This document shows, one piece after another, positions 24,792-35,020 of a stretch of DNA of 64,000 nucleotides (within the stretch, counting starts at the first letter, position 1; every line of letters starts with the position of its first letter). The notes beneath the pieces are model-generated. The model made no database searches and was not told where the DNA came from. It saw only the letters and a program-made list of their open reading frames with translations. The stretch is from Thermoplasmatota archaeon (GTDB lineage Archaea; Thermoplasmatota; Penumbrarchaeia; Penumbrarchaeales; Penumbrarchaeaceae), in contig CBDDUX010000002.1 of NCBI GenBank assembly GCA_965234725.1, positions 1-64,000 of the forward strand, given 5' to 3'. A program made the translations under genes and the position numbers.

Positions 24792-27161
24792 TCACTGGAT
24801 CCTTCTCATGAGATCAGGTTCATCATCCTGGAATCGATCTTTCTTTTTCATCCTTAAGTTGGCAATTATAAGTATCACTATCAGGACCCCCACAACGGCT
24901 ATGATAAATTTCATTGTATTTTCATCGCCCGTTTCCCCGCCGTCATCGATATCATTTTCTCCCTCATTCGAGGGGATCATGGTAATGTTAGTTACCCGGA
25001 CTTCCTCTCTCTGAAATACCTCCTCAAGGTCCTCCTTGTCGATCCAGTAAAAGCACCTGGTCCCCTCGAAGTAGAATCTCTCCCTGGATTCGTCAAAGCG
25101 AAATCCTCTGATGACCTGACATGGCAGTCCCATTTCCGAATTATATATTACATGACTTCCGTTGTTCACATGCAATGACATGAATCCCTGACCAAATGAA
25201 TCTACAGGCACATAAAGGATATCTTGATCCTCGTCCAGATACATGGAAACCCTTACCATTATCCTTGTCAGGTTCTCGTCATGTTCGAAATCGCTTTTAA
25301 ATAGATCATATGAGGTCAGCAGAATGAGATCATCCGCCTCTTCCGAGTAGACTATCTGTTTTATAGTGAAATCGAACCAATCGAATCCGCTTCCGTCTCC
25401 TTTTGAGTAGTTGTTCAGGTAAGTGTACTTTCCTGTGTCCAGATTCAATTCCAAAAGATCGCTGTATACCTCGGTGAAGAGGTAGACAAGATCCCTTTTC
25501 GGATGTTTATAGACTCCATTTGAAGCTGGTCTTCCAAATGAGGTGAAGTTCCCTTCTCTTGGATTGGTTCTGTTGTTCTTCGGGTTGAAGTACCTCTTCG
25601 TTCCATTGTCAGGATAATAGATATGGATGCCGTAGCTACTGCCCAAATAAACAGGTCCGTTCTCATCCGGTATATCCAGGCTGTAGAAATGGAATGTATC
25701 ATTGATATCTATCCTGAAAAGTGTGTTGTTTTCAAAGTTCAGGATGAAGGTCCCGTTTTCCGCCATAATGTAGAGATCGGCTCCCCGGAATTCCATGTCG
25801 CGGACATGTTCCACTTCGTCTTCGAAATCTCTGATTATATTCATTCCCTCATCCAGGAGATAAAGAGATCGTTCATTTCCAACGATCAATCCGTCATGCA
25901 GCGGTGATGTCCTCATAATGGACGGTATATCATGGTACCGGGGATCATCTGGATTCTTTCTGGTAACGATCACTCTTTCGAAACTATCATCATCTATTCT
26001 GTACCACATCAACCTGGCCACATCATCATAATGTGATCTCCCGGATCCTGATCCAGAATAGTAGTTGCCACTTCCTATCAGAAGGTCCGTCGTGACAGGA
26101 TCGTAGATGATCTTGGAAGAAGTTATCCTGGCAAAGCTTTCTCCTTCATAGTCATCATGGTCATATACTCTCAGTAATTGGGGCTCCGATCCGTCGAATC
26201 TCAGGAGTGTGTAACGTGACGCGATCTGGGAATAGACCTCGTCTCTCAGAGGATCATAGCAAACCCTGAACAATATATCCCAGTGATCGGTATAATTCCC
26301 ATCGAAATCATCAACAGGTTTGTATGTATCATTTTTATGGTCTTCTTCAAGGTATGGATACTGCATCCAATCTCCGGTGTGAATATTGTATCTGACCAGT
26401 CTGTAACCAGCGATATAGAGGTTTCCCGTATTCTCATCCAGGTCCATCTCGTTTGTCTGATAGCCCAAAACATCACAATCAAGGATTATTTCCCCCGTGT
26501 CATTTTCGGGATTGAAGATCAGGAAACCATTCAATGTAGCCAGGTATAACTTTCCAATCTCTTCCACATATTTCATATCCTGGATGGAACCGAATCCTTT
26601 GTAATGATAATTGACCAGTTCGATATGGGATAGATCATGATATTGGTATCTGTGTTCCTTCAGGTCCACCTCAAAAAGGGCACTGGTGTGAGAAATGAAT
26701 AATTTGTCATTTCTTCCATCATATGCAATTTTACCGGTCCCTGTTTTGTAAGGTGTTCCATCTTCATCCGTCAGAACGAATTTATCTATCAGGGTAAAGT
26801 CATTCGTATCTACAATATAGATATTGGGTCTGTATTTTTCTGCAATAATCAACCTGTCTCCCTTCTGGTCCAGTTCAATATCCTGAATGACGGGCTCCTC
26901 GATCCCGAACCATTTTCCAATATGACAGAACTCTCCTGTATCCAGGTCCTTGACGAATACCCCGTTATATGTTGCAAGATATAGGATTCTGTTCTCTGAA
27001 TCCAGCTCCATGTCGTTGAAGTATTCAGGGTCCGTGTAGTAAACATGGAAAGGATTTTCAGGTCCGAGTCTGTCATCCTTATTTTCGAACCCAGATGAGG
27101 TCAGGGAGAATTGAGTGATGACAAGCAGAGATATCAGAAGAAAAACCATTGTTCTTTTCAT
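24792..27161 (-). CDS. Membrane-anchored surface protein, probable beta-propeller (paralog A)
   Basis: Signal peptide, repeated LYLATxxG/DMELD blade-like units, C-terminal TM and basic tail. Confidence 0.75.
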   Translation of the reverse strand: MKRTMVFLLISLLVITQFSLTSSGFENKDDRLGPENPFHVYYTDPEYFNDMELDSENRILYLATYNGVFVKDLDTGEFCHIGKWFGIEEPVIQDIELDQKGDRLIIAEKYRPNIYIVDTNDFTLIDKFVLTDEDGTPYKTGTGKIAYDGRNDKLFISHTSALFEVDLKEHRYQYHDLSHIELVNYHYKGFGSIQDMKYVEEIGKLYLATLNGFLIFNPENDTGEIILDCDVLGYQTNEMDLDENTGNLYIAGYRLVRYNIHTGDWMQYPYLEEDHKNDTYKPVDDFDGNYTDHWDILFRVCYDPLRDEVYSQIASRYTLLRFDGSEPQLLRVYDHDDYEGESFARITSSKIIYDPVTTDLLIGSGNYYSGSGSGRSHYDDVARLMWYRIDDDSFERVIVTRKNPDDPRYHDIPSIMRTSPLHDGLIVGNERSLYLLDEGMNIIRDFEDEVEHVRDMEFRGADLYIMAENGTFILNFENNTLFRIDINDTFHFYSLDIPDENGPVYLGSSYGIHIYYPDNGTKRYFNPKNNRTNPREGNFTSFGRPASNGVYKHPKRDLVYLFTEVYSDLLELNLDTGKYTYLNNYSKGDGSGFDWFDFTIKQIVYSEEADDLILLTSYDLFKSDFEHDENLTRIMVRVSMYLDEDQDILYVPVDSFGQGFMSLHVNNGSHVIYNSEMGLPCQVIRGFRFDESRERFYFEGTRCFYWIDKEDLEEVFQREEVRVTNITMIPSNEGENDIDDGGETGDENTMKFIIAVVGVLIVILIIANLRMKKKDRFQDDEPDLMRRIQ

Positions 27162-27176
27162 TTTACCACGTCCTGC

Positions 27177-29603
27177 TTATCTGTTCATGACCTTGATTTG
27201 AATATTGTCTCTCAGATCAGGTCCTTTCTTCCCCATCCTCACATTGGCAATGATCAATATCAGGATCAATATGGATACGATGATTATCAGAATAACAGAT
27301 GTTCTGGTTTCCTTATCTATTTCCGAATTCTCCTCCTCAATCAAATTCCTACCTTCATCCGAAAGCAGTGTGATGTTAGTATGGGGGACCTCCTCTCTCT
27401 GATATACCTCCTCAAGGTCCTCCATATCGATCCAGTAGAAGCTTCTACCGCCGGCAAAGTACAATCTGTCCCTGACCTCATCATGGTGGAATCCCTTGTT
27501 CCAGATCCAGGGCATACCATCCCTGTTCAGTATATTTTCAAAACTTCCGTTTCTCAGATTTATTATGAAGAATCCCTGTGGTGAACCTGACGGCCAGGAT
27601 GGGCTCGGGCCTGTATCTTCATACATCAGGAATTCTCCCGTGATCGCATAAAGGATATCTTCCTCCTCATCAAGATATATTGAATTGAGACAGGCGGTCT
27701 GGGGTAACCGGGGATCATCTCCGTAGGTTCCGTTCCTGAGTCCGTGATGTGTGAGTATGATAATATCATCCATTTCCTCGGAGTACAGGACCTTGCTCAC
27801 CCTTTCATCATTCCAGATATTGATAGACTCCCCATCTTCCATGACAGTCAGGTTGTTGAGGTATGTGTATTTTCCAGTGTTCAGGTCCAGTTCCAGCAGA
27901 TCACTGTATTGATCTGTATAAAGATACACGACCTCTTCTTTCGGATGAACATAGATCCCACCAGGTGCGAGTCTCCCGAAATTGGTGAAATTACCTTCTT
28001 CGGGATTGGTCCTGTTATTGATTGGGTTGAAGAATCTCAAGGTTTTATTTTCCGGGTAGTAGATATGCACACCGTAAGCGCTTCCTAGATATACAGGCCC
28101 ATTTTCCGAAGGAATTTCAACTCCGTAGAAATTTACCGAATCATTTATCCCGATCCTGGAAAGGGAATTATTATTGAAATTGAGAATGAAGGTTCCGTTC
28201 TTTGCAGATATATATAGGTCAGGCCCCCTGAATTCCATGTCGAATACCTGTTCGATCTGATCCGAATAATCCCTGATGATATCCATCCTGTCATCAAGGA
28301 GAAACAATGAGTAATGATTCCCAACAACAAGTCCATCGTGGAGAGGTGTTGTCCTGAGCCAGTAGAACTCATTCCAATGGTCTGGTTCTCCCGGATTCTT
28401 TCTGAATATCTCGATATTTTCGAAGCTATCCTCATCTACATGGTACCACATTATTCTGGTTTCGGAATCCCAGCTCATCCCGGAAGAACTTCCACCTGTT
28501 TTGAAACGACCGTGGCAGAACAGGATATCATCTGTCACGGGATCGAATATTATCCTGCAGGTTGTGCCCTGTGCAAATGATTCTCCCTGGTAATCCTCAT
28601 AATGATAGGTTCTTAATAACCTCGGTTTACTTCCGTCAAATCTCAACAGATTGAGGTATGTGACCATCTGACAGTATACTTCATCTCTCAGTGGATCGTA
28701 GCAGACCCTGAAAAGTGGATAACCGTCATCCCATTCCTCTTCAGGAAATTCATCTACTGGAATGAAAGTATCATTTCTCCAATCATCGTATACATAGGGA
28801 TACTGCATCCATTCCTCGGTGTAAATATTGAACTTCACGAGCCTGTACCCTGCAATATAGAGATTTCCTGTCCTCTCGTCCAGGTCCATTCCATGAGTTT
28901 GGACTGTTAGCACCTCGCAATCAGGTATCCTTCCGGCCGTTCCATTATCCGGATTGTAGATCAGAAAACCTCTCAGGGTTGCCAGGTAAAGTAAACCTGT
29001 TTCCTTTACATATTTCATTTCCTGAACATGGTACCAATCATCTATTCCGCTACCAGGATCGAAGAACTCACTTGAATCGATCATCTCGCATGTCTTTGAA
29101 TTCAAATTAATAATGAACAAGACCTCGGATGAAGAGGCAAAGATTCTGTCATTATCCCCATCATATGTGAAACGATCTATGTCCGTTTCTACGGGGGCTC
29201 CGTTCTCTTTCTTGATGACGAATTTATAGAGTAACTCTAAACTTTCTGTATCTATTACATATATGAAGGGATTCCTCTCATCGACCGCAAACAATCTACC
29301 GGTGTTCAGATCCAAATGTATCTGGGTAATTCTGGAATCCTCCAATCCGAACCACATGCCCATATTGCAGAATTCGCCGGTTTCCAGGTCCTTTACGAAA
29401 ACTCCATAGTCGGTAGCGAGATACAGGGTTCGATTCAATGCATCCAGCTCCATGTCGTTGAAGTATTCAGGGTCCGTGTAGTAAACATGAAACGGATTCT
29501 CCGGCCCAAGCCTGTCATCTTTCATGTTGCCCATGATCCCGGAAACTCCCGGAAGCACCATGATCAGGACCAATGAAAGGAATACCATTGAATTGATTCT
29601 CAA
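27177..29603 (-). CDS. Membrane-anchored surface protein, probable beta-propeller (paralog B)
   Basis: Colinear with paralog A, e.g. DDRLGPENPFHVYYTDPEYFNDMELD and FRVCYDPLRDEVY. Confidence 0.75.
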   Translation of the reverse strand: MRINSMVFLSLVLIMVLPGVSGIMGNMKDDRLGPENPFHVYYTDPEYFNDMELDALNRTLYLATDYGVFVKDLETGEFCNMGMWFGLEDSRITQIHLDLNTGRLFAVDERNPFIYVIDTESLELLYKFVIKKENGAPVETDIDRFTYDGDNDRIFASSSEVLFIINLNSKTCEMIDSSEFFDPGSGIDDWYHVQEMKYVKETGLLYLATLRGFLIYNPDNGTAGRIPDCEVLTVQTHGMDLDERTGNLYIAGYRLVKFNIYTEEWMQYPYVYDDWRNDTFIPVDEFPEEEWDDGYPLFRVCYDPLRDEVYCQMVTYLNLLRFDGSKPRLLRTYHYEDYQGESFAQGTTCRIIFDPVTDDILFCHGRFKTGGSSSGMSWDSETRIMWYHVDEDSFENIEIFRKNPGEPDHWNEFYWLRTTPLHDGLVVGNHYSLFLLDDRMDIIRDYSDQIEQVFDMEFRGPDLYISAKNGTFILNFNNNSLSRIGINDSVNFYGVEIPSENGPVYLGSAYGVHIYYPENKTLRFFNPINNRTNPEEGNFTNFGRLAPGGIYVHPKEEVVYLYTDQYSDLLELDLNTGKYTYLNNLTVMEDGESINIWNDERVSKVLYSEEMDDIIILTHHGLRNGTYGDDPRLPQTACLNSIYLDEEEDILYAITGEFLMYEDTGPSPSWPSGSPQGFFIINLRNGSFENILNRDGMPWIWNKGFHHDEVRDRLYFAGGRSFYWIDMEDLEEVYQREEVPHTNITLLSDEGRNLIEEENSEIDKETRTSVILIIIVSILILILIIANVRMGKKGPDLRDNIQIKVMNR

Positions 29604-31109: not shown

Positions 31110-32513
31110 TCACTGTCCCAGTTTCGAGGTGATCCTTCTGATCATGAATATGGCCTTGGAGGAGTTCGGGTCCAATTTCAGCAGTTCCTTGAACAGTGTC
31201 AAGGCCTCCTCCATTCTTCCTTCCTTGTAAGCATCCTTGGCCATTTCCATCAATTCATCCGGGGAATGACCGGAAAGGTTCGAAGGCTCCTCATCCGCAA
31301 TTGGAGCTTCTTCCAGTTTCTCCTCTACCTCGGGTTCCTGAACTTCCTCGGCTTCGGGGATCTCTTCTTGCAACTGAGGTTCTTCTTCCGCTACTGGGAT
31401 CTCCTCCTGTTGTGAAGGCACCTCTTCAGCTTCTGGGATGTCCTCCTGTTGGAGTGGCACCTCTTCCGCTTCCGGGATATCTTCCTGTTCTTGGGGTATC
31501 TCTTCAGAAGTCTCCTCCTCGGATCTCTCATCAGTGGATGTGGTATCCAAAGGAAGATCGGTTTCTTCTTGATCCTCATTATCAGGTGGGATCTCCTCAT
31601 CCTGTGGAGGGATCTCTTCTGGAGTTTTCTCGGATACTTCCTCCATGAGGGTGTCAGCTTTTTTCTGAATATCCCTGATCCTCAGAAGCTGGTTTTCAAC
31701 ATCCTGTGAAAGGTGGGGATATTGGAACTTAACTATCATTTCCTGGGCTTCCTGTTGGAATCCTGTGAGGTCCATTTCTTTGAAGAGCTCTTTGACCTTC
31801 TCCATCCTCTTGATGTCGACCTCGAACTGATCGACCTCCCTCTGAGCAACGTCACGGTCTTCAGCGATGGAATTCTTTAGCTTATCCACAAAATAACCCA
31901 TCTCCTCCCAGTTGGATATCCTGGATAGAAGGGGGTCCTCCTCTATTTCCAGGGAAAAAGCGTCACCGATCTCATTAAGGTCGTCCAGGAGATCATCAAG
32001 AGCATTTTCATCTACGGTGATAGGCCCGGATTCCTTCCCACCATTCTTTTTCAGTTTTTTGGATTTTTCCTTCAAAGATTTTGAAAGCTTTCTTCCGGGT
32101 TCACCCCTTTTCCCATGGCCAACATCATGTTCGGTGTGGGCCCTATCTCGAAGTTCTTCCACCCATTTGGTTACCTGATCAGCCTTTGAAGGGTCTTTGA
32201 TATTCTCATTGATCGTCTCGATCTCATTTGTATAACCATACCCCTCCAGGGTTCTCAGAACTGTCTGTGCCGAGTTCAGGTCCTTTACAGATGATCTATA
32301 ATCGGAGATCCCTTTCATGATCTTATCAGGTTTCATCCCCTTCAATTTCTTCAATGGTTCAACGTTCAGACCCTGTGCCTGGTATCTCTCAATATTGACC
32401 AAAAGCTCAGCTTCGGCCTTGTTCTCGTTATCTTCTGGACCTTCTTTCTTTTCAAGACCGAAGTTCTTTGCGATAAGGTCCTTCATTCCCTTTCCTAGTG
32501 CTGCTTTACCCAT
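31110..32513 (-). CDS. ParA-partner protein: Spo0J-like N-terminal peptide, duplicated helical module, acidic repeats, C-terminal TPR
   Basis: MGKAALGKGMKDLI start overlapping parA stop; AKDAYKEGRMEEALTLFKELLKLDPNS TPR; no ParB GxxRxxA motif. Confidence 0.75.
   Translation of the reverse strand: MGKAALGKGMKDLIAKNFGLEKKEGPEDNENKAEAELLVNIERYQAQGLNVEPLKKLKGMKPDKIMKGISDYRSSVKDLNSAQTVLRTLEGYGYTNEIETINENIKDPSKADQVTKWVEELRDRAHTEHDVGHGKRGEPGRKLSKSLKEKSKKLKKNGGKESGPITVDENALDDLLDDLNEIGDAFSLEIEEDPLLSRISNWEEMGYFVDKLKNSIAEDRDVAQREVDQFEVDIKRMEKVKELFKEMDLTGFQQEAQEMIVKFQYPHLSQDVENQLLRIRDIQKKADTLMEEVSEKTPEEIPPQDEEIPPDNEDQEETDLPLDTTSTDERSEEETSEEIPQEQEDIPEAEEVPLQQEDIPEAEEVPSQQEEIPVAEEEPQLQEEIPEAEEVQEPEVEEKLEEAPIADEEPSNLSGHSPDELMEMAKDAYKEGRMEEALTLFKELLKLDPNSSKAIFMIRRITSKLGQ
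31343..31498 (-). repeat. Coding 39-bp (13-aa) tandem repeat, about 4 copies
   Basis: QEDIPEAEEVPLQ / QEDIPEAEEVPSQ / QEEIPVAEEEPQL / QEEIPEAEEVQ. Confidence 0.85.
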
Positions 32514-33267
32514 GAGCAATCACTTCTCTGGCCAGATCCATGTAGGTCTGAGCTCCCGTCGATTCAGGTGCATAGAGAATGGAGGGTTTTCCAAACGACG
32601 GAGCCTCTCCGAGTTTGACATTCCTCGGAATGATCGTTTTATAAACTTTATCACCAAAATAGTTCTTGACCTCTGCAACAACCTGCTTTGAAAGGTTGGT
32701 CCTCCTGTCGAACATGGTCATTACAATACCTTCGATGGTCAGATCAGGATTGAGGTTCTTCTGGACCAGGAAGATGGTATCAAGCAGTTCAGACATACCT
32801 TCCAGGGCGAAGTATTCGCACTGGAGGGGGATCATGACCGATTCGGCGGCGGTGAGGTTGTTCAATGTGATAAGACCCAAAGAAGGTGGAGAGTCGATAA
32901 GGATGAAATCATATTCATCCTCTACTTCCTTCAAGGCATTCTTCAGGATCCTTTCCCTCTCCGGAACATTTACAAGTTCAACAGAGGCTCCTGCAAGATT
33001 GATGTTGGAACCTATAAGGTCCAGGTTCTCCAGATCTGTATGGAGGATGGAATCTCTGATCCCGCACTGGGATGTCAGGACCTCATAGATAGTGTACTCG
33101 AGCTCGTTCTTGTCGAAGCCCAGACCGGAAGTGGTGTTACCCTGAGTATCCGTATCGATGAGGAGGGACCTCTTGCCGAGAAAGGAGAGAGAAGCTGACA
33201 GATTGATGGCTGTGGTGGTCTTTCCCACACCTCCTTTCTGGTTAACGATGGTGATTATTCGTGCCAT
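32506..33267 (-). CDS. parA: Soj/ParA-family ATPase (bacterial chromosomal type)
   Basis: Deviant Walker A NQKGGVGKTTT, DTDTQGN, IDSPPSLG, QCEYFALEG, IPRNVKLGEAPSFG. Confidence 0.95.
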   Translation of the reverse strand: MARIITIVNQKGGVGKTTTAINLSASLSFLGKRSLLIDTDTQGNTTSGLGFDKNELEYTIYEVLTSQCGIRDSILHTDLENLDLIGSNINLAGASVELVNVPERERILKNALKEVEDEYDFILIDSPPSLGLITLNNLTAAESVMIPLQCEYFALEGMSELLDTIFLVQKNLNPDLTIEGIVMTMFDRRTNLSKQVVAEVKNYFGDKVYKTIIPRNVKLGEAPSFGKPSILYAPESTGAQTYMDLAREVIAHG

Positions 33268-33395
33268 TCACATCCCCTGGTTCTTATTAAACAATTATCA
33301 TTTAGTCCCAAGTTATCGAGACTATATTTATGTTTTGGGCAAATTCACACTAATGGAAAAATGACCCTGGAGAGGCATTATTAATTGATTTTCTT

Positions 33396-35020
33396 GGCAC
33401 ACCGGAGAATTCTAGTGATTTGAGTGTTTTCAGATGAACAACGATTGAATAAGACCGAAAATTCATTTGTTGAAAACAATTTTTACAGCCGAATTTCAAT
33501 GACTGATCAATTTCAAATCAAAATTTCATTCAAATCCGAATTGTCAAGGTGGCACAAGCTGGTATAAAGGAAGATGTTGAATACATATCAGGTCAAGTCA
33601 ATAATCGAAACGGTATCAAAGATCCAATTATTTCCATCATGGATGGACCATCATACTTCAACAAACCAGCTCTTTTCATCGCATACAATTTCCATTGCCT
33701 TAGAAGTCCAGTATTCTTTCTATGCTGTTTCTTCTTGACCTGTTTGCAACTGCATGAATAGTAATTCTCAATTGGATTGTTAGTTGCAGGAGCACCATCA
33801 AAATGATAGAATGCAGTTAATCGGTCCCAATCATGCTCGATCATCAATATTCGTTTTCGGACAGATACACTAAACTCATTCAATCGGACTTTCAATCTAT
33901 CCAGGTTTGATATTGCTTCATTCAGGGACCACATCTTCATTCTATCAGGAATTCTCATCCGTTTGCAGTTCTTTCTTCTCTTTTTCTCAATGCTTCTAAC
34001 AAATTCATGGAACTCTTCTCTCTGGTCCAACAACCATCTGTTGTATCCTTTTTCATGTCTGGACAAATATCTCAGTTCCCTTTTCACAGCTAACTTGAGA
34101 TACTCGATCTCTTCTGTTCTGTCGTAGAATATATTCAGAAGTTCATATTTGATCAGTTCGTTCTTAAATGAACAGTTCCTGTGAAAATCCTTGACGATGT
34201 TCTTGTTCAAGTGAAGAAGACAATGCTGGTGAAGTATATACCCAGGTCTGATTTCGTCAAGTATATCGTTGTACATCCTCAGATGGTCTGTGATAATGAA
34301 TATTATTTTATCCTTTGGCAGATGCCTGTCCAGGAAATCTCTCACAATATAACTATTCAATTCGGTAGCCAATTCTTCAACTATCATTTGCCTGGTCTTT
34401 CCATCGAGTAATGAAAGCCGATATTTCTGGGTTCTGCCTTTCTTTGGATGCTGTTCATCATAATGAAATATCTCAAGATCTGATTCTATATCGATCTCTG
34501 CACCATCAACTGCTCTTTGATGAATGTTTCTTACAGTGTCAGGTGATAATTGAATGAATGGTGATAATGTCTCTGATATGTTCTCGAATGATAGGTATCC
34601 AATTCTCATATTGAGTATCATGTGATTTATTGCTTTCATGAATGTTGATATCAATCCTTTGATGATCTCATTTTACATCTCATGGTTGGATTTACATATC
34701 TGACATCTGTATCTTTGAGTATTAATTTTGCCGATTTTATCTTTGCCGTGTTTGTTGAACCCATTCAACACCATTTTCTCATTACATGTGGGACAAAAAA
34801 CACCTATTGTATATTGCAATACATTATTGTGAGATAAAATGAGATCTTCATCATAATCCTTGAGTGAGTTGATAATATTCTCTGCAGCCAAAAAGTTATT
34901 AAGATTTGTTTTAATTACATTCATTGATATACATCCTGTTGATTATTTGTATATTGTTGCTATTATCCAAATACCAACGATGTATATCACTTTTTCATCA
35001 CTAATTAATTAGGGTGTGCC
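33396..35020 (-). mobile_element. Insertion sequence (ISNCY, ISM1-like), 1625 bp
   Basis: Imperfect terminal IRs GGCACACC-N9-TAGTGAT; 9-bp direct repeat gattttctt at 33387-33395 and 35021-35029; AT-richer than flanks. Confidence 0.85.
33593..34924 (-). pseudogene. DDE transposase interrupted by one in-frame TAA
   Basis: ORFs 34673-34924 (CPTC...CQIC) and 33593-34654 (YDEQH, ITDH, QHCLLH, ATNNPIENYYS) are in frame: SNHEM*NEIIKGLIST. Confidence 0.85.

Follow-up and report, generated by a model that had tools for sequence, protein, structure and literature searches.

Bacterial ParABS systems are among the closest described relatives of the gene pair reported here. Published work describes how a short motif of ParB engages ParA: in Myxococcus xanthus (ParB residues 11–19), four hydrophobic residues and a central Arg bind ParA, in which Y81/E82 and L150/L152 are critical for binding of the peptide, and in Helicobacter pylori, F52 of ParA stacks on Arg9 of ParB, the conserved ParB contacts being Leu7 and Arg9. 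According to the same work, the central residue of the chromosomal ParB motif is Lys in about half of the cases, the ParB peptide alone stimulates bacterial ParA in vitro, and in M. xanthus paired peptides on the assembled complex are needed for efficient stimulation of ParA. The preprint that carries the code 8RAY assigns this structure to M. xanthus ParA. Here we analyse parA and the gene that overlaps its end in a 64,000-nucleotide stretch from a Thermoplasmatota archaeon (GenBank assembly GCA_965234725.1, contig CBDDUX010000002.1, positions 1 to 64,000 of the forward strand; hereafter, the window). This pair, in which a Soj-type ParA is joined by a non-ParB partner that begins with a putative ParA-binding peptide, suggests that archaea have a ParB-less positioning system not yet described.

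Work on chromosome segregation and cytoplasm organization in archaea is, to our knowledge, limited to SegAB, the pNOB8 system and, of late, HpaAB, and both subjects are largely open. ParA/MinD systems also act on protein cargo through adaptors, as in McdAB (carboxysomes), PomXYZ (division site), PpfA–TlpT and ParC–ParP. In the SegAB preprint, SegA is described as only ~34% identical to bacterial ParA and SegB as a small, site-specific DNA binder, mostly of 105–120 amino acids (aa), and the survey in its text mentions no Thermoplasmatota. The HpaAB report on Haloferax volcanii (Nat Commun 2026, PMC13722703) describes HpaA as clustering with MipZ and HpaB as a small ribbon-helix-helix (RHH) centromere binder of a secondary chromosome, with the N-terminal ~12 residues of HpaB needed for ordered positioning.

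A Soj-type ATPase and its overlapping partner gene

Both genes lie on the minus strand. The parA gene (32506–33267) is a 253-aa open reading frame (ORF) for a Soj-type ATPase with the deviant Walker A motif NQKGGVGKTT and the C-terminal end YMDLAREVIAHG, and the partner gene (31110–32513), read from its ATG, encodes a protein of 467 aa with an isoelectric point (pI) of 4.4 that starts with MGKAALGKGMKDLI. The 8-nucleotide (nt) overlap between the end of parA and the start of the partner reads ATGGGTAA. A preliminary description of the locus, made from the letters alone, had reported a 253-aa Soj-type ATPase overlapping its partner by this distance, and we found this arrangement and all of the other sequence features that it described in place. 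A TTG at 32519, two codons 5′ of the ATG, is a possible alternative start; the relatives seen in our survey of ORFs next to ParA (see below) begin at the ATG position, not at the TTG. parA and the partner gene are translationally coupled.

Pfam AAA_31 covers the whole length of the ATPase (E = 6.2e-68), whose closest solved structures are 8ray_B (1.5e-82), H. pylori Soj (6iub_A, 3.1e-67) and Thermus thermophilus Soj (1wcv, 1.6e-64). Its catalytic residues include D38/D40 of Walker A′ and D125 of Walker B, and the motifs are invariant in 17 archaeal ParAs. With a deviant Walker A motif that has the signature lysine, together with the aspartates of Walker A′ and Walker B that mark chromosomal ParA/Soj, the protein is an intact chromosomal Soj-type ATPase. 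It is encoded in a single copy, with no second Soj-type ParA in the genome.

Equating D58, D60 and N64 of M. xanthus ParA with D38, D40 and N44 of the window's ParA gives an offset of 20, by which Y81/E82 and L150/L152 map to Y61/E62 and L130/L132. In alignments, these four residues and F51, the counterpart of H. pylori F52, are the same as in the M. xanthus and H. pylori proteins, and all five are invariant in the 17 archaeal ParAs. Judged by sequence, the ATPase thus retains the pocket residues by which bacterial ParA takes up the ParB motif. The arginines of MFDRRTNL and IPRNV (R189 and R215), which we take to be equivalent to the DNA-binding R189 and R218 of Bacillus subtilis Soj, are also present and invariant in this set. 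Prediction of a complex between a ParA dimer with ATP and Mg and partner residues 1–40 (score 0.01, mark 0.32) speaks neither for nor against binding.

A ParB-type peptide at the start of the partner

Residues 1–14 of the partner (32472–32513, minus strand), MGKAALGKGMKDLI, form a putative ParB-type ParA-binding peptide. A word-indexed search with partner residues 1–300 returned 31 clusters, all of them from Thermoplasmatota bins or unnamed metagenome proteins, of which 28 were aligned and three fragments (P0021, P0029 and P0031) left out. In this 28-row alignment, M10, D12 and L13 are invariant, and M1, K3, A5, L6, G7, K8 and G9 are retained in at least 90% of the rows, down to an overall identity of 36%; row P0006 begins at M10, probably because of a short gene call. 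The peptide is thus invariant or nearly so in 28 relatives, and it is kept where ParA is only 70% identical.

Its segment ALGKGMKDLI fits ParB's ParA-binding motif, in which aliphatic residues surround a central Arg or Lys. When a 30-position profile of seven archaeal partner N termini was compared with the PDB, only three sequences were retrieved at E ≤ 10, and two of these were extreme N termini of ParB proteins (Caulobacter crescentus 6t1f_A, residues 1–16, and T. thermophilus Spo0J 1vz0_A, from residue 7). The weight of these two matches lies in their position rather than in their E-value. By sequence, the first 14 residues of the partner copy the ParA-binding motif of chromosomal ParB.

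Recurrence of the gene pair

In a profile search over 401 genomes sampled across the phylum, full-length partner matches were found only in the window's family (f1), at 20 loci (L001–L020). parA lies directly upstream at all 20, with the partner starting 7–13 nt before the end of parA, and ParA identity is 86–99% in these loci versus 34–87% for the partner. More distant pairs occur in f2, a family of the same order, where ParA is 71–76% identical and the partners begin with MKKGKLALGRGLKELL or MGKSKLALGKGLKELL, and in f9, of the same class, where ParA is 70% identical and the partner begins with MAKRALGKGLKEL. The partners of f2 and f9 share the helical modules and C-terminal cap described below, and there too parA is directly upstream, with the overlap preserved. 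The pairing is therefore not unique to this genome, and its recurrence, together with the near-invariance of the peptide across the family, makes the arrangement more than chance.

We also ran an exhaustive profile search of 1.84 billion representatives, which gave 1,276 matches at E ≤ 0.001; of these, 235 passed a cut-off of 1e-10 and 56 one of 1e-30, the last group including giant module-repeat proteins. We examined 19 of 150 matches listed: 17 were partner-like (69–609 aa, some of them fragments) and began with the peptide, or inside it where the gene call was short, and two (687 and 863 aa) were larger module-plus-TPR (tetratricopeptide repeat) proteins without the peptide. Among the matches listed were many giant proteins, with lengths of up to 3,345 aa and up to 22 matched stretches.

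Architecture of the partner protein

Two AlphaFold2 models were built on family alignments, one of the whole protein (mean predicted local distance difference test (pLDDT) score of 72.3) and one of residues 22–296 (mean pLDDT of 82.9). Both are wholly helical, with no β-strand, and in the partner model blocks with pLDDT >90 span residues ~31–130, ~200–290 and ~415–465. Helical module 1 (residues ~26–130; 32124–32438, minus strand) is an antiparallel helical bundle with pLDDT >90, and helical module 2 (residues ~190–295; 31629–31946, minus strand) has a W-E-x-x-G-Y-F-V-D signature. The modules represent an internal duplication, as had been proposed for this protein: hhalign pairs residues 22–132 with residues 186–296 in register across 85 columns (probability 74.7%, E = 2.6e-5). 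Neither the whole nor the module-only model had a Foldseek match at E ≤ 0.001. The structural neighbours of the module found by VIA-align (EbhA, Z 7.8; Embp, 7.5; EzrA, 6.1) are generic bundles within the noise range of the tool, and the look-alikes of residues 1–295 in the ESM Atlas (best score 0.78) are unnamed clusters and uninformative.

Between the modules lies a conserved basic segment (residues 141–160; 32034–32093, minus strand) with 10 K/R in 20 residues, modelled as a low-confidence helix (pLDDT 59–68); K142, L143 and L147 of this segment are invariant or nearly so in the 28-row alignment. Module 2 is followed by a disordered acidic Pro/Glu linker (residues ~296–410; 31284–31628, minus strand; pLDDT 30–42), which is variable in length, gap-rich in the alignment and partly encoded by 39-nt (13-aa) direct repeats. 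Charge counts of 0–1 K/R versus 7–9 D/E per 20 residues bear out the long acidic stretch of the preliminary description.

The protein ends in a 1.5-repeat TPR-like cap (residues 414–467; 31113–31274, minus strand) with the conserved tail DP-x-NSKA-x-FMIRR. The family profile matches consensus TPR proteins in the PDB (E = 8.2e-16), and the modelled cap superposes on the TPRs of MamA (Z 8.7, root-mean-square deviation 1.1 Å, 52 residues), whereas the match of residues 419–450 to Pfam TPR_2 is sub-threshold (24.0 bits against a cut-off of 27, E = 3.7e-5). TPR proteins usually contain at least three helix-turn-helix repeats of 34 residues. The cap is one TPR plus a capping helix, TPR-shaped but too short to form a classical groove alone. 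Of the TPR originally assigned to the partner, the shape thus holds, but its extent shrinks to ~1.5 repeats.

Scans with Pfam and NCBIfam found no helix-turn-helix (HTH), RHH or other DNA-binding family in the partner, in line with the earlier statement that it has no recognizable HTH. Given this result, the all-helical models and a pI of 4.3–5.2 in 30 of 30 members of the partner family, the partner is unlikely to bind DNA alone.

Two further proteins of the window's genome share parts with the partner. One (G000:C19, L031:3367-5994; 875 aa) combines about five helical modules, a single TPR-like cap and a tail with a DnaJ-type CxxCxGxG zinc finger, and the other (G000:C4, L032:2080-3726) is a 548-aa zinc-ribbon/KaiC-like ATPase with the same TPR-like cap.

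Searches for ParB and parS

No ParB family matches the partner in Pfam or NCBIfam at E ≤ 0.1, and GxxRxxA or ENLQRE-like CTP motifs were found in none of 30 partner family members, extending to the family what had been noted for the CTP-binding motif of the single protein. The ParB/Srx domain has an α/β fold. Without a match to PF02195 (ParB_N) or an NCBIfam model, without the motifs and with strand-free models, the partner does not qualify as a ParB/Srx CTPase-domain protein. VIA-align searches with the whole and module models gave only TPRs at the C terminus and generic helical bundles for the modules, and no ParB, Srx, HTH or RHH chain, a missing match in such a search not being proof of absence. 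Family scans, strand-free models and fold searches that returned TPRs and helical bundles therefore detected no cryptic ParB/Srx fold.

The absence of ParB extends beyond the partner. Searches with PF02195 were negative for the window's genome (97.65% complete), for 24 of 24 f1 genomes (this one included), for two of two f2 genomes, and for f8 and f9; as a positive control, the search detected the domain in 10 of 14 named genomes. Within the class, 4 of 37 genomes are positive, all of them from f3 and f6, and these two families have no Soj-type ParA at E ≤ 1e-60. The ParB_N proteins of f3 and f6 are ~320–380 aa long (L067–L070, in G186, G142, G071 and G170); G186 has six copies and 7% contamination.

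For parS we took TGTTNCACGTGAAACA as the consensus and used it as query. It had no match in the genome at 0–1 mismatch and nine scattered matches at two mismatches, none of them in the window, and neither palindromes nor iterated sites were found near the operon; the first reading, which saw no parS palindrome, agrees with this. Taken together, a Soj-type ParA, a conserved peptide and no ParB domain detected support the proposal of a bacterial-type par operon with a non-ParB partner.

Tagged proteins and ParA fusions across the phylum

Soj-type ParA (E ≤ 1e-60) occurs at 42 places in 36 of the 401 sampled genomes. We surveyed the next ORF at 41 ParA-bearing loci, the window among them. At 29 of these, an ORF at −13 to +4 nt has [LM]G[KR][GS][LMI] within its first 20 residues, and at six the next ORF has a K[KR]RGLD variant. 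Three loci encode fusions of ParA to helical modules, and three hold a second copy of ParA, its N terminus extended by basic sequence, without a tagged neighbour.

Several types of protein other than the window's partner carry the peptide behind ParA. Three loci have a tagged EamA transporter of ~320 aa (Pfam EamA 1.9e-24 and 5.6e-19). At L051:2910-3212, a 100-aa double-zinc-ribbon protein carries KKKGLGKSLNELI; at L053:1289-4312, a 239-aa acidic protein is followed by a 763-aa protein with five or more TPRs, both of them bearing the peptide; and a further tagged next ORF encodes a 106-aa protein of no known family. The EamA proteins (L056:2557-3522, L060:1125-2111 and L061:2502-3461) are of the two-domain EamA/DMT type and start with GLGRGL or GLGRSL. 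Their loci belong to one family of small-genome Thermoplasmatota, in which ParA is N-terminally extended, and the large ORF upstream of the EamA-linked ParA has no Pfam match. At L055 and L062–L066, ParA is 44–47% identical and is followed by a ~90-aa protein starting K(K/R)RGLD..LISQ; here the genes appear to lie in an integrated element, of which a genome has up to two copies and which also encodes a serine recombinase, an Orc1/Cdc6-like protein and a large ATPase.

The three fusions (L048:2264-5059, L049:2182-4053 and L050:2041-4056, in G015, G003 and G026, respectively) are single ORFs of 623–931 aa in which an acidic Pro/Glu linker connects ParA (56–58% identical) with two or three of these helical modules. 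As natural fusions, they provide an independent functional link between ParA and the modules. They have no TPR cap. They also lack the LGKG peptide altogether, which implies a separate role for the modules with ParA.

Modules were also found in proteins of ~865 aa (L059:1265-3868 in G003 and L058:6173-8767 in G026) that have an N-terminal domain and two helical modules, followed in the G003 copy by a bacterial DnaA-type AAA+ domain (Pfam Bac_DnaA 5.3e-59; TIGR00362 6.7e-91, below cut-off) and DUF835. The gene is a few kilobases (kb) from the second ParA with the basic N-terminal extension. Nearby are a 510-aa coiled-coil protein, a possible primase subunit and an ORF that, read by eye, resembles an Hjc resolvase.

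In the window's genome, a six-frame scan for the 8-residue motif near ORF starts gave three matches. One was the partner, and another was discounted as internal, since the frame stays open for 228 residues on its upstream side. The third revealed a second tagged protein that is unlinked to parA (G000:C8:49266-50903). It is 545 aa long, starts with MARNNNSGALGKGLRALI/MARNNNSGALGKGLRALIRDK and has a C-terminal multi-TPR domain (TPR_1/TPR_2, ~1e-23). The order has orthologues in 23 of 26 genomes, namely 22 of the 23 other f1 genomes and this one, with none in the two f2 genomes. The N-terminal pattern ALG[KR]GL..LI was found in 20 of the 23 orthologue-bearing genomes; of the remaining three, two are truncated where a contig ends and the other is unclear. 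Neighbours of the unlinked gene (serine hydroxymethyltransferase (SHMT), an OB-fold protein and a weak MCM winged-helix match) offer no clear lead. In one respect the preliminary description was too narrow: the unlinked TPR protein and other types of protein behind ParA are tagged as well. To judge by the unlinked protein, more than one tagged client may depend on a single ParA.

Genomic neighbourhood and upstream region

The gene order in f1 is aldolase, triose-phosphate isomerase, purF, parA, partner and UbiA-type prenyltransferase, with purF directly upstream in 11 of 12 long loci and UbiA downstream in all 11 loci that reach far enough. The locus is a stable chromosomal core region, not a mobile element. 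UbiA, whose subtype NCBIfam leaves unresolved, is not kept at the level of the order; for this reason, the neighbouring genes purF and UbiA, considered as clues to the cargo, were judged to be inherited synteny and set aside.

A conserved region upstream of parA (33265–33337, minus strand; 11-locus alignment) contains the box CAAAACATA(A/C)ATATAG at 33322–33337 and GGGGA before the ATG. Compared with the archaeal consensus, the box would be a B recognition element (BRE)/TATA promoter, and the GGGGA a ribosome-binding site. In the window, purF and parA are split by an insertion of ~1.85 kb at a place where relatives have only ~100 nt. The spacer (33593–34924) holds a 353-aa ORF with a faint match to an IS66-type DDE transposase (E = 0.042) and an 83-aa InsA-like zinc-ribbon ORF. 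Given the short spacer of the relatives, it looks like an insertion element, one that did not disturb the box upstream of parA.

Elsewhere in the window (24792–29603), two paralogous ORFs in tandem, of 789 and 808 aa, combine a signal-like segment at the N terminus with a transmembrane helix at the C terminus; the closest relative (L033) has them incompletely or in fragments. Bac_DnaA-type ATPase domains occur in two ORFs of the genome, one of 441 aa (G000:C3:102199-102672; Pfam Bac_DnaA 2.4e-58) and one within a 1,252-aa frame (G000:C21:22034-22504; 9.7e-46).

Interpretation and alternative explanations

By a modest measure, we think it probable that the locus encodes a ParB-less ParA–adaptor positioning system. 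In such a system, ATP-bound ParA dimers would coat the nucleoid, and the partner peptide, with hydrophobic L6, M10, L13 and I14 around a central K8, would dock at the ParA dimer's edge. The docked peptide, together with DNA, would then trigger ATP hydrolysis by ParA; docking and activation would probably proceed as in bacteria. The modules, the acidic spacer and the TPR cap may tie a protein cargo or a self-assembled scaffold to the cycle of nucleoid-bound ParA, and a diffusion-ratchet would then space or segregate the cargo over the nucleoid. The helical modules, which are spectrin-like, are the likely cargo or assembly interface, since other lineages fuse them to ParA and giant repeat proteins built from them occur in the same genomes. 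On this reading, the ParB body would have been replaced by another protein, and the cargo would be protein rather than DNA.

Several points weigh against this reading. The label of a protein-interaction scaffold, used in the preliminary description, rests on architecture, because the modules have no informative structural relative, and the conserved basic segment could bind DNA or membrane. The PDB matches of the peptide profile (E of 0.5–0.9) are individually not significant. No neighbouring gene points to a cargo, and the genomes compared are all metagenome bins. Finally, four f1 genomes keep the tagged TPR protein and have no detected ParA or partner. With a completeness of 62–90% and about as many misses as expected from gaps, assembly gaps are the likely cause here, and loss is possible.

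A broader reading, which we offer tentatively, is that the ParB motif has become a portable tag in Thermoplasmatota, so that one nucleoid-bound ParA serves several tagged clients as a general intracellular addressing system of archaea. The clients would be the scaffold and the unlinked multi-TPR protein in the window's genome and, elsewhere, the EamA transporter, the double-zinc-ribbon protein and the tandem tagged proteins; the fusions would dispense with the tag. Rather than serving dedicated DNA partition, such a system may organize giant module-repeat proteins in a cytoskeleton-like network.

It is rather unlikely, in our assessment, that the partner is a new centromere-binding adaptor, holding DNA through its basic segment or through a DNA-binding protein carried on its TPR or modules, with ParA segregating origins as in ParABS. 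The ParA is close to chromosomal Soj, single-copy and set in a stable neighbourhood of core genes, and other archaeal ParA systems have exchanged ParB for unrelated DNA binders (SegB, and HpaB with its RHH fold). The conserved stretch of 10 K/R in 20 residues would also suit a DNA binder, and the joining of modules to a DnaA-type AAA+ domain in L059 hints at a link to replication. Against this stand the strongly acidic character of all 30 members (pI 4.3–5.2), the lack of any HTH, RHH or other DNA-binding family in Pfam and NCBIfam scans and the lack of repeated, palindromic or parS-like sites around the operon. Moreover, the peptide also occurs on proteins that cannot bind centromeres, the EamA transporter among them.

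In B. subtilis, DnaA is under the control of Soj, which the Spo0J peptide switches in turn. By this precedent, the partner could be mainly a regulator of ParA, a soluble peptide donor that sets its ATP/ADP state, with ParA controlling, for example, replication initiation or nucleoid occlusion of FtsZ. The genome has FtsZ (three matches), no Snf7 match and no second Soj-type ParA, as would suit this idea, and the peptide alone is reported to stimulate bacterial ParA in vitro. We nevertheless consider a mere regulator improbable: it would not need the two modules, spacer and TPR cap that are kept family-wide; the peptide-less fusions argue that the modules act with ParA; and stimulation in M. 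xanthus is reported to be efficient only with paired peptides on an assembled complex. Most improbable by far is a highly diverged ParB with Srx/CTPase and HTH domains unrecognizable by sequence, as the partner has the operon position, N-terminal motif and typical overlap of ParB but no ParB_N match at E ≤ 0.1, no GxxRxxA/ENLQRE-like motif in any of 30 members, no β-strand in confident models where Srx is α/β, and a body formed by internal duplication of a module that also builds giant repeat proteins.

Across an entire lineage of archaea from sediment and soil, a bacterial-grade ParA thus persists in the absence of ParB, with the putative docking peptide placed on unrelated proteins. Should the peptide work as it does in bacteria, the ParA-activating motif would be a transferable module, and this has a bearing on the way ParA/MinD systems gain cargos. 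The partners would then define an archaeal scaffold family that, with the giant repeat proteins, is a possible cytoskeletal element, and ParA, DNA and a 20-residue peptide would make a simple in vitro system.

Comparison with known systems

A search of the literature outside subscription journals turned up no account of a non-ParB partner that bears a ParB peptide and accompanies a Thermoplasmatota ParA. Among archaeal systems, AspA–ParB–ParA of the Sulfolobus plasmid pNOB8 resembles the locus as a partition system with a bacterial-like ParA; it has a true ParB homologue and the DNA-binding adaptor AspA, whereas no ParB was found here. HpaAB is similar in that its archaeal ParA has a bacterial origin and is overlapped by a downstream gene whose family is unknown, but HpaB, as described (PMC13722703), has no ParB-type LG(K/R)G motif, modules or TPR, and this description sets the two apart. 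SegAB(C) of the Sulfolobales and some Euryarchaeota likewise combines a chromosomal ParA-like ATPase with a non-ParB partner that engages it through its N-terminal region. The partner described here differs from SegB, again by description, in being 467 aa long and acidic, with no DNA-binding fold detected.

The bacterial adaptor systems for protein cargo share with this locus a ParA-type ATPase with a non-ParB partner and, on the reading proposed here, contact through an N-terminal peptide and a protein cargo, and PomX/PomY are coiled-coil or scaffold proteins. However, their ATPases are diverged paralogues that exist beside a canonical ParABS and respond to peptides of their own, whereas the ATPase here is Soj-type and its partner carries the ParB motif; no counterpart was found there for the adaptor family, its modules or the archaeal setting.

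Compared with bacterial ParABS (Soj–Spo0J and the M. xanthus and H. pylori systems), the locus differs in its archaeal host, in having no detectable ParB/Srx CTPase, HTH, CTP motifs or parS-like sites, with ParB_N found in neither genome nor family, and in the acidic helical-module/TPR body of its partner. It resembles ParABS in other respects: the ATPase is close (8ray_B, 1.5e-82) and has the same catalytic and pocket residues, and the partner lies directly downstream with an overlapping start and an N-terminal motif of aliphatic residues around Lys/Arg.

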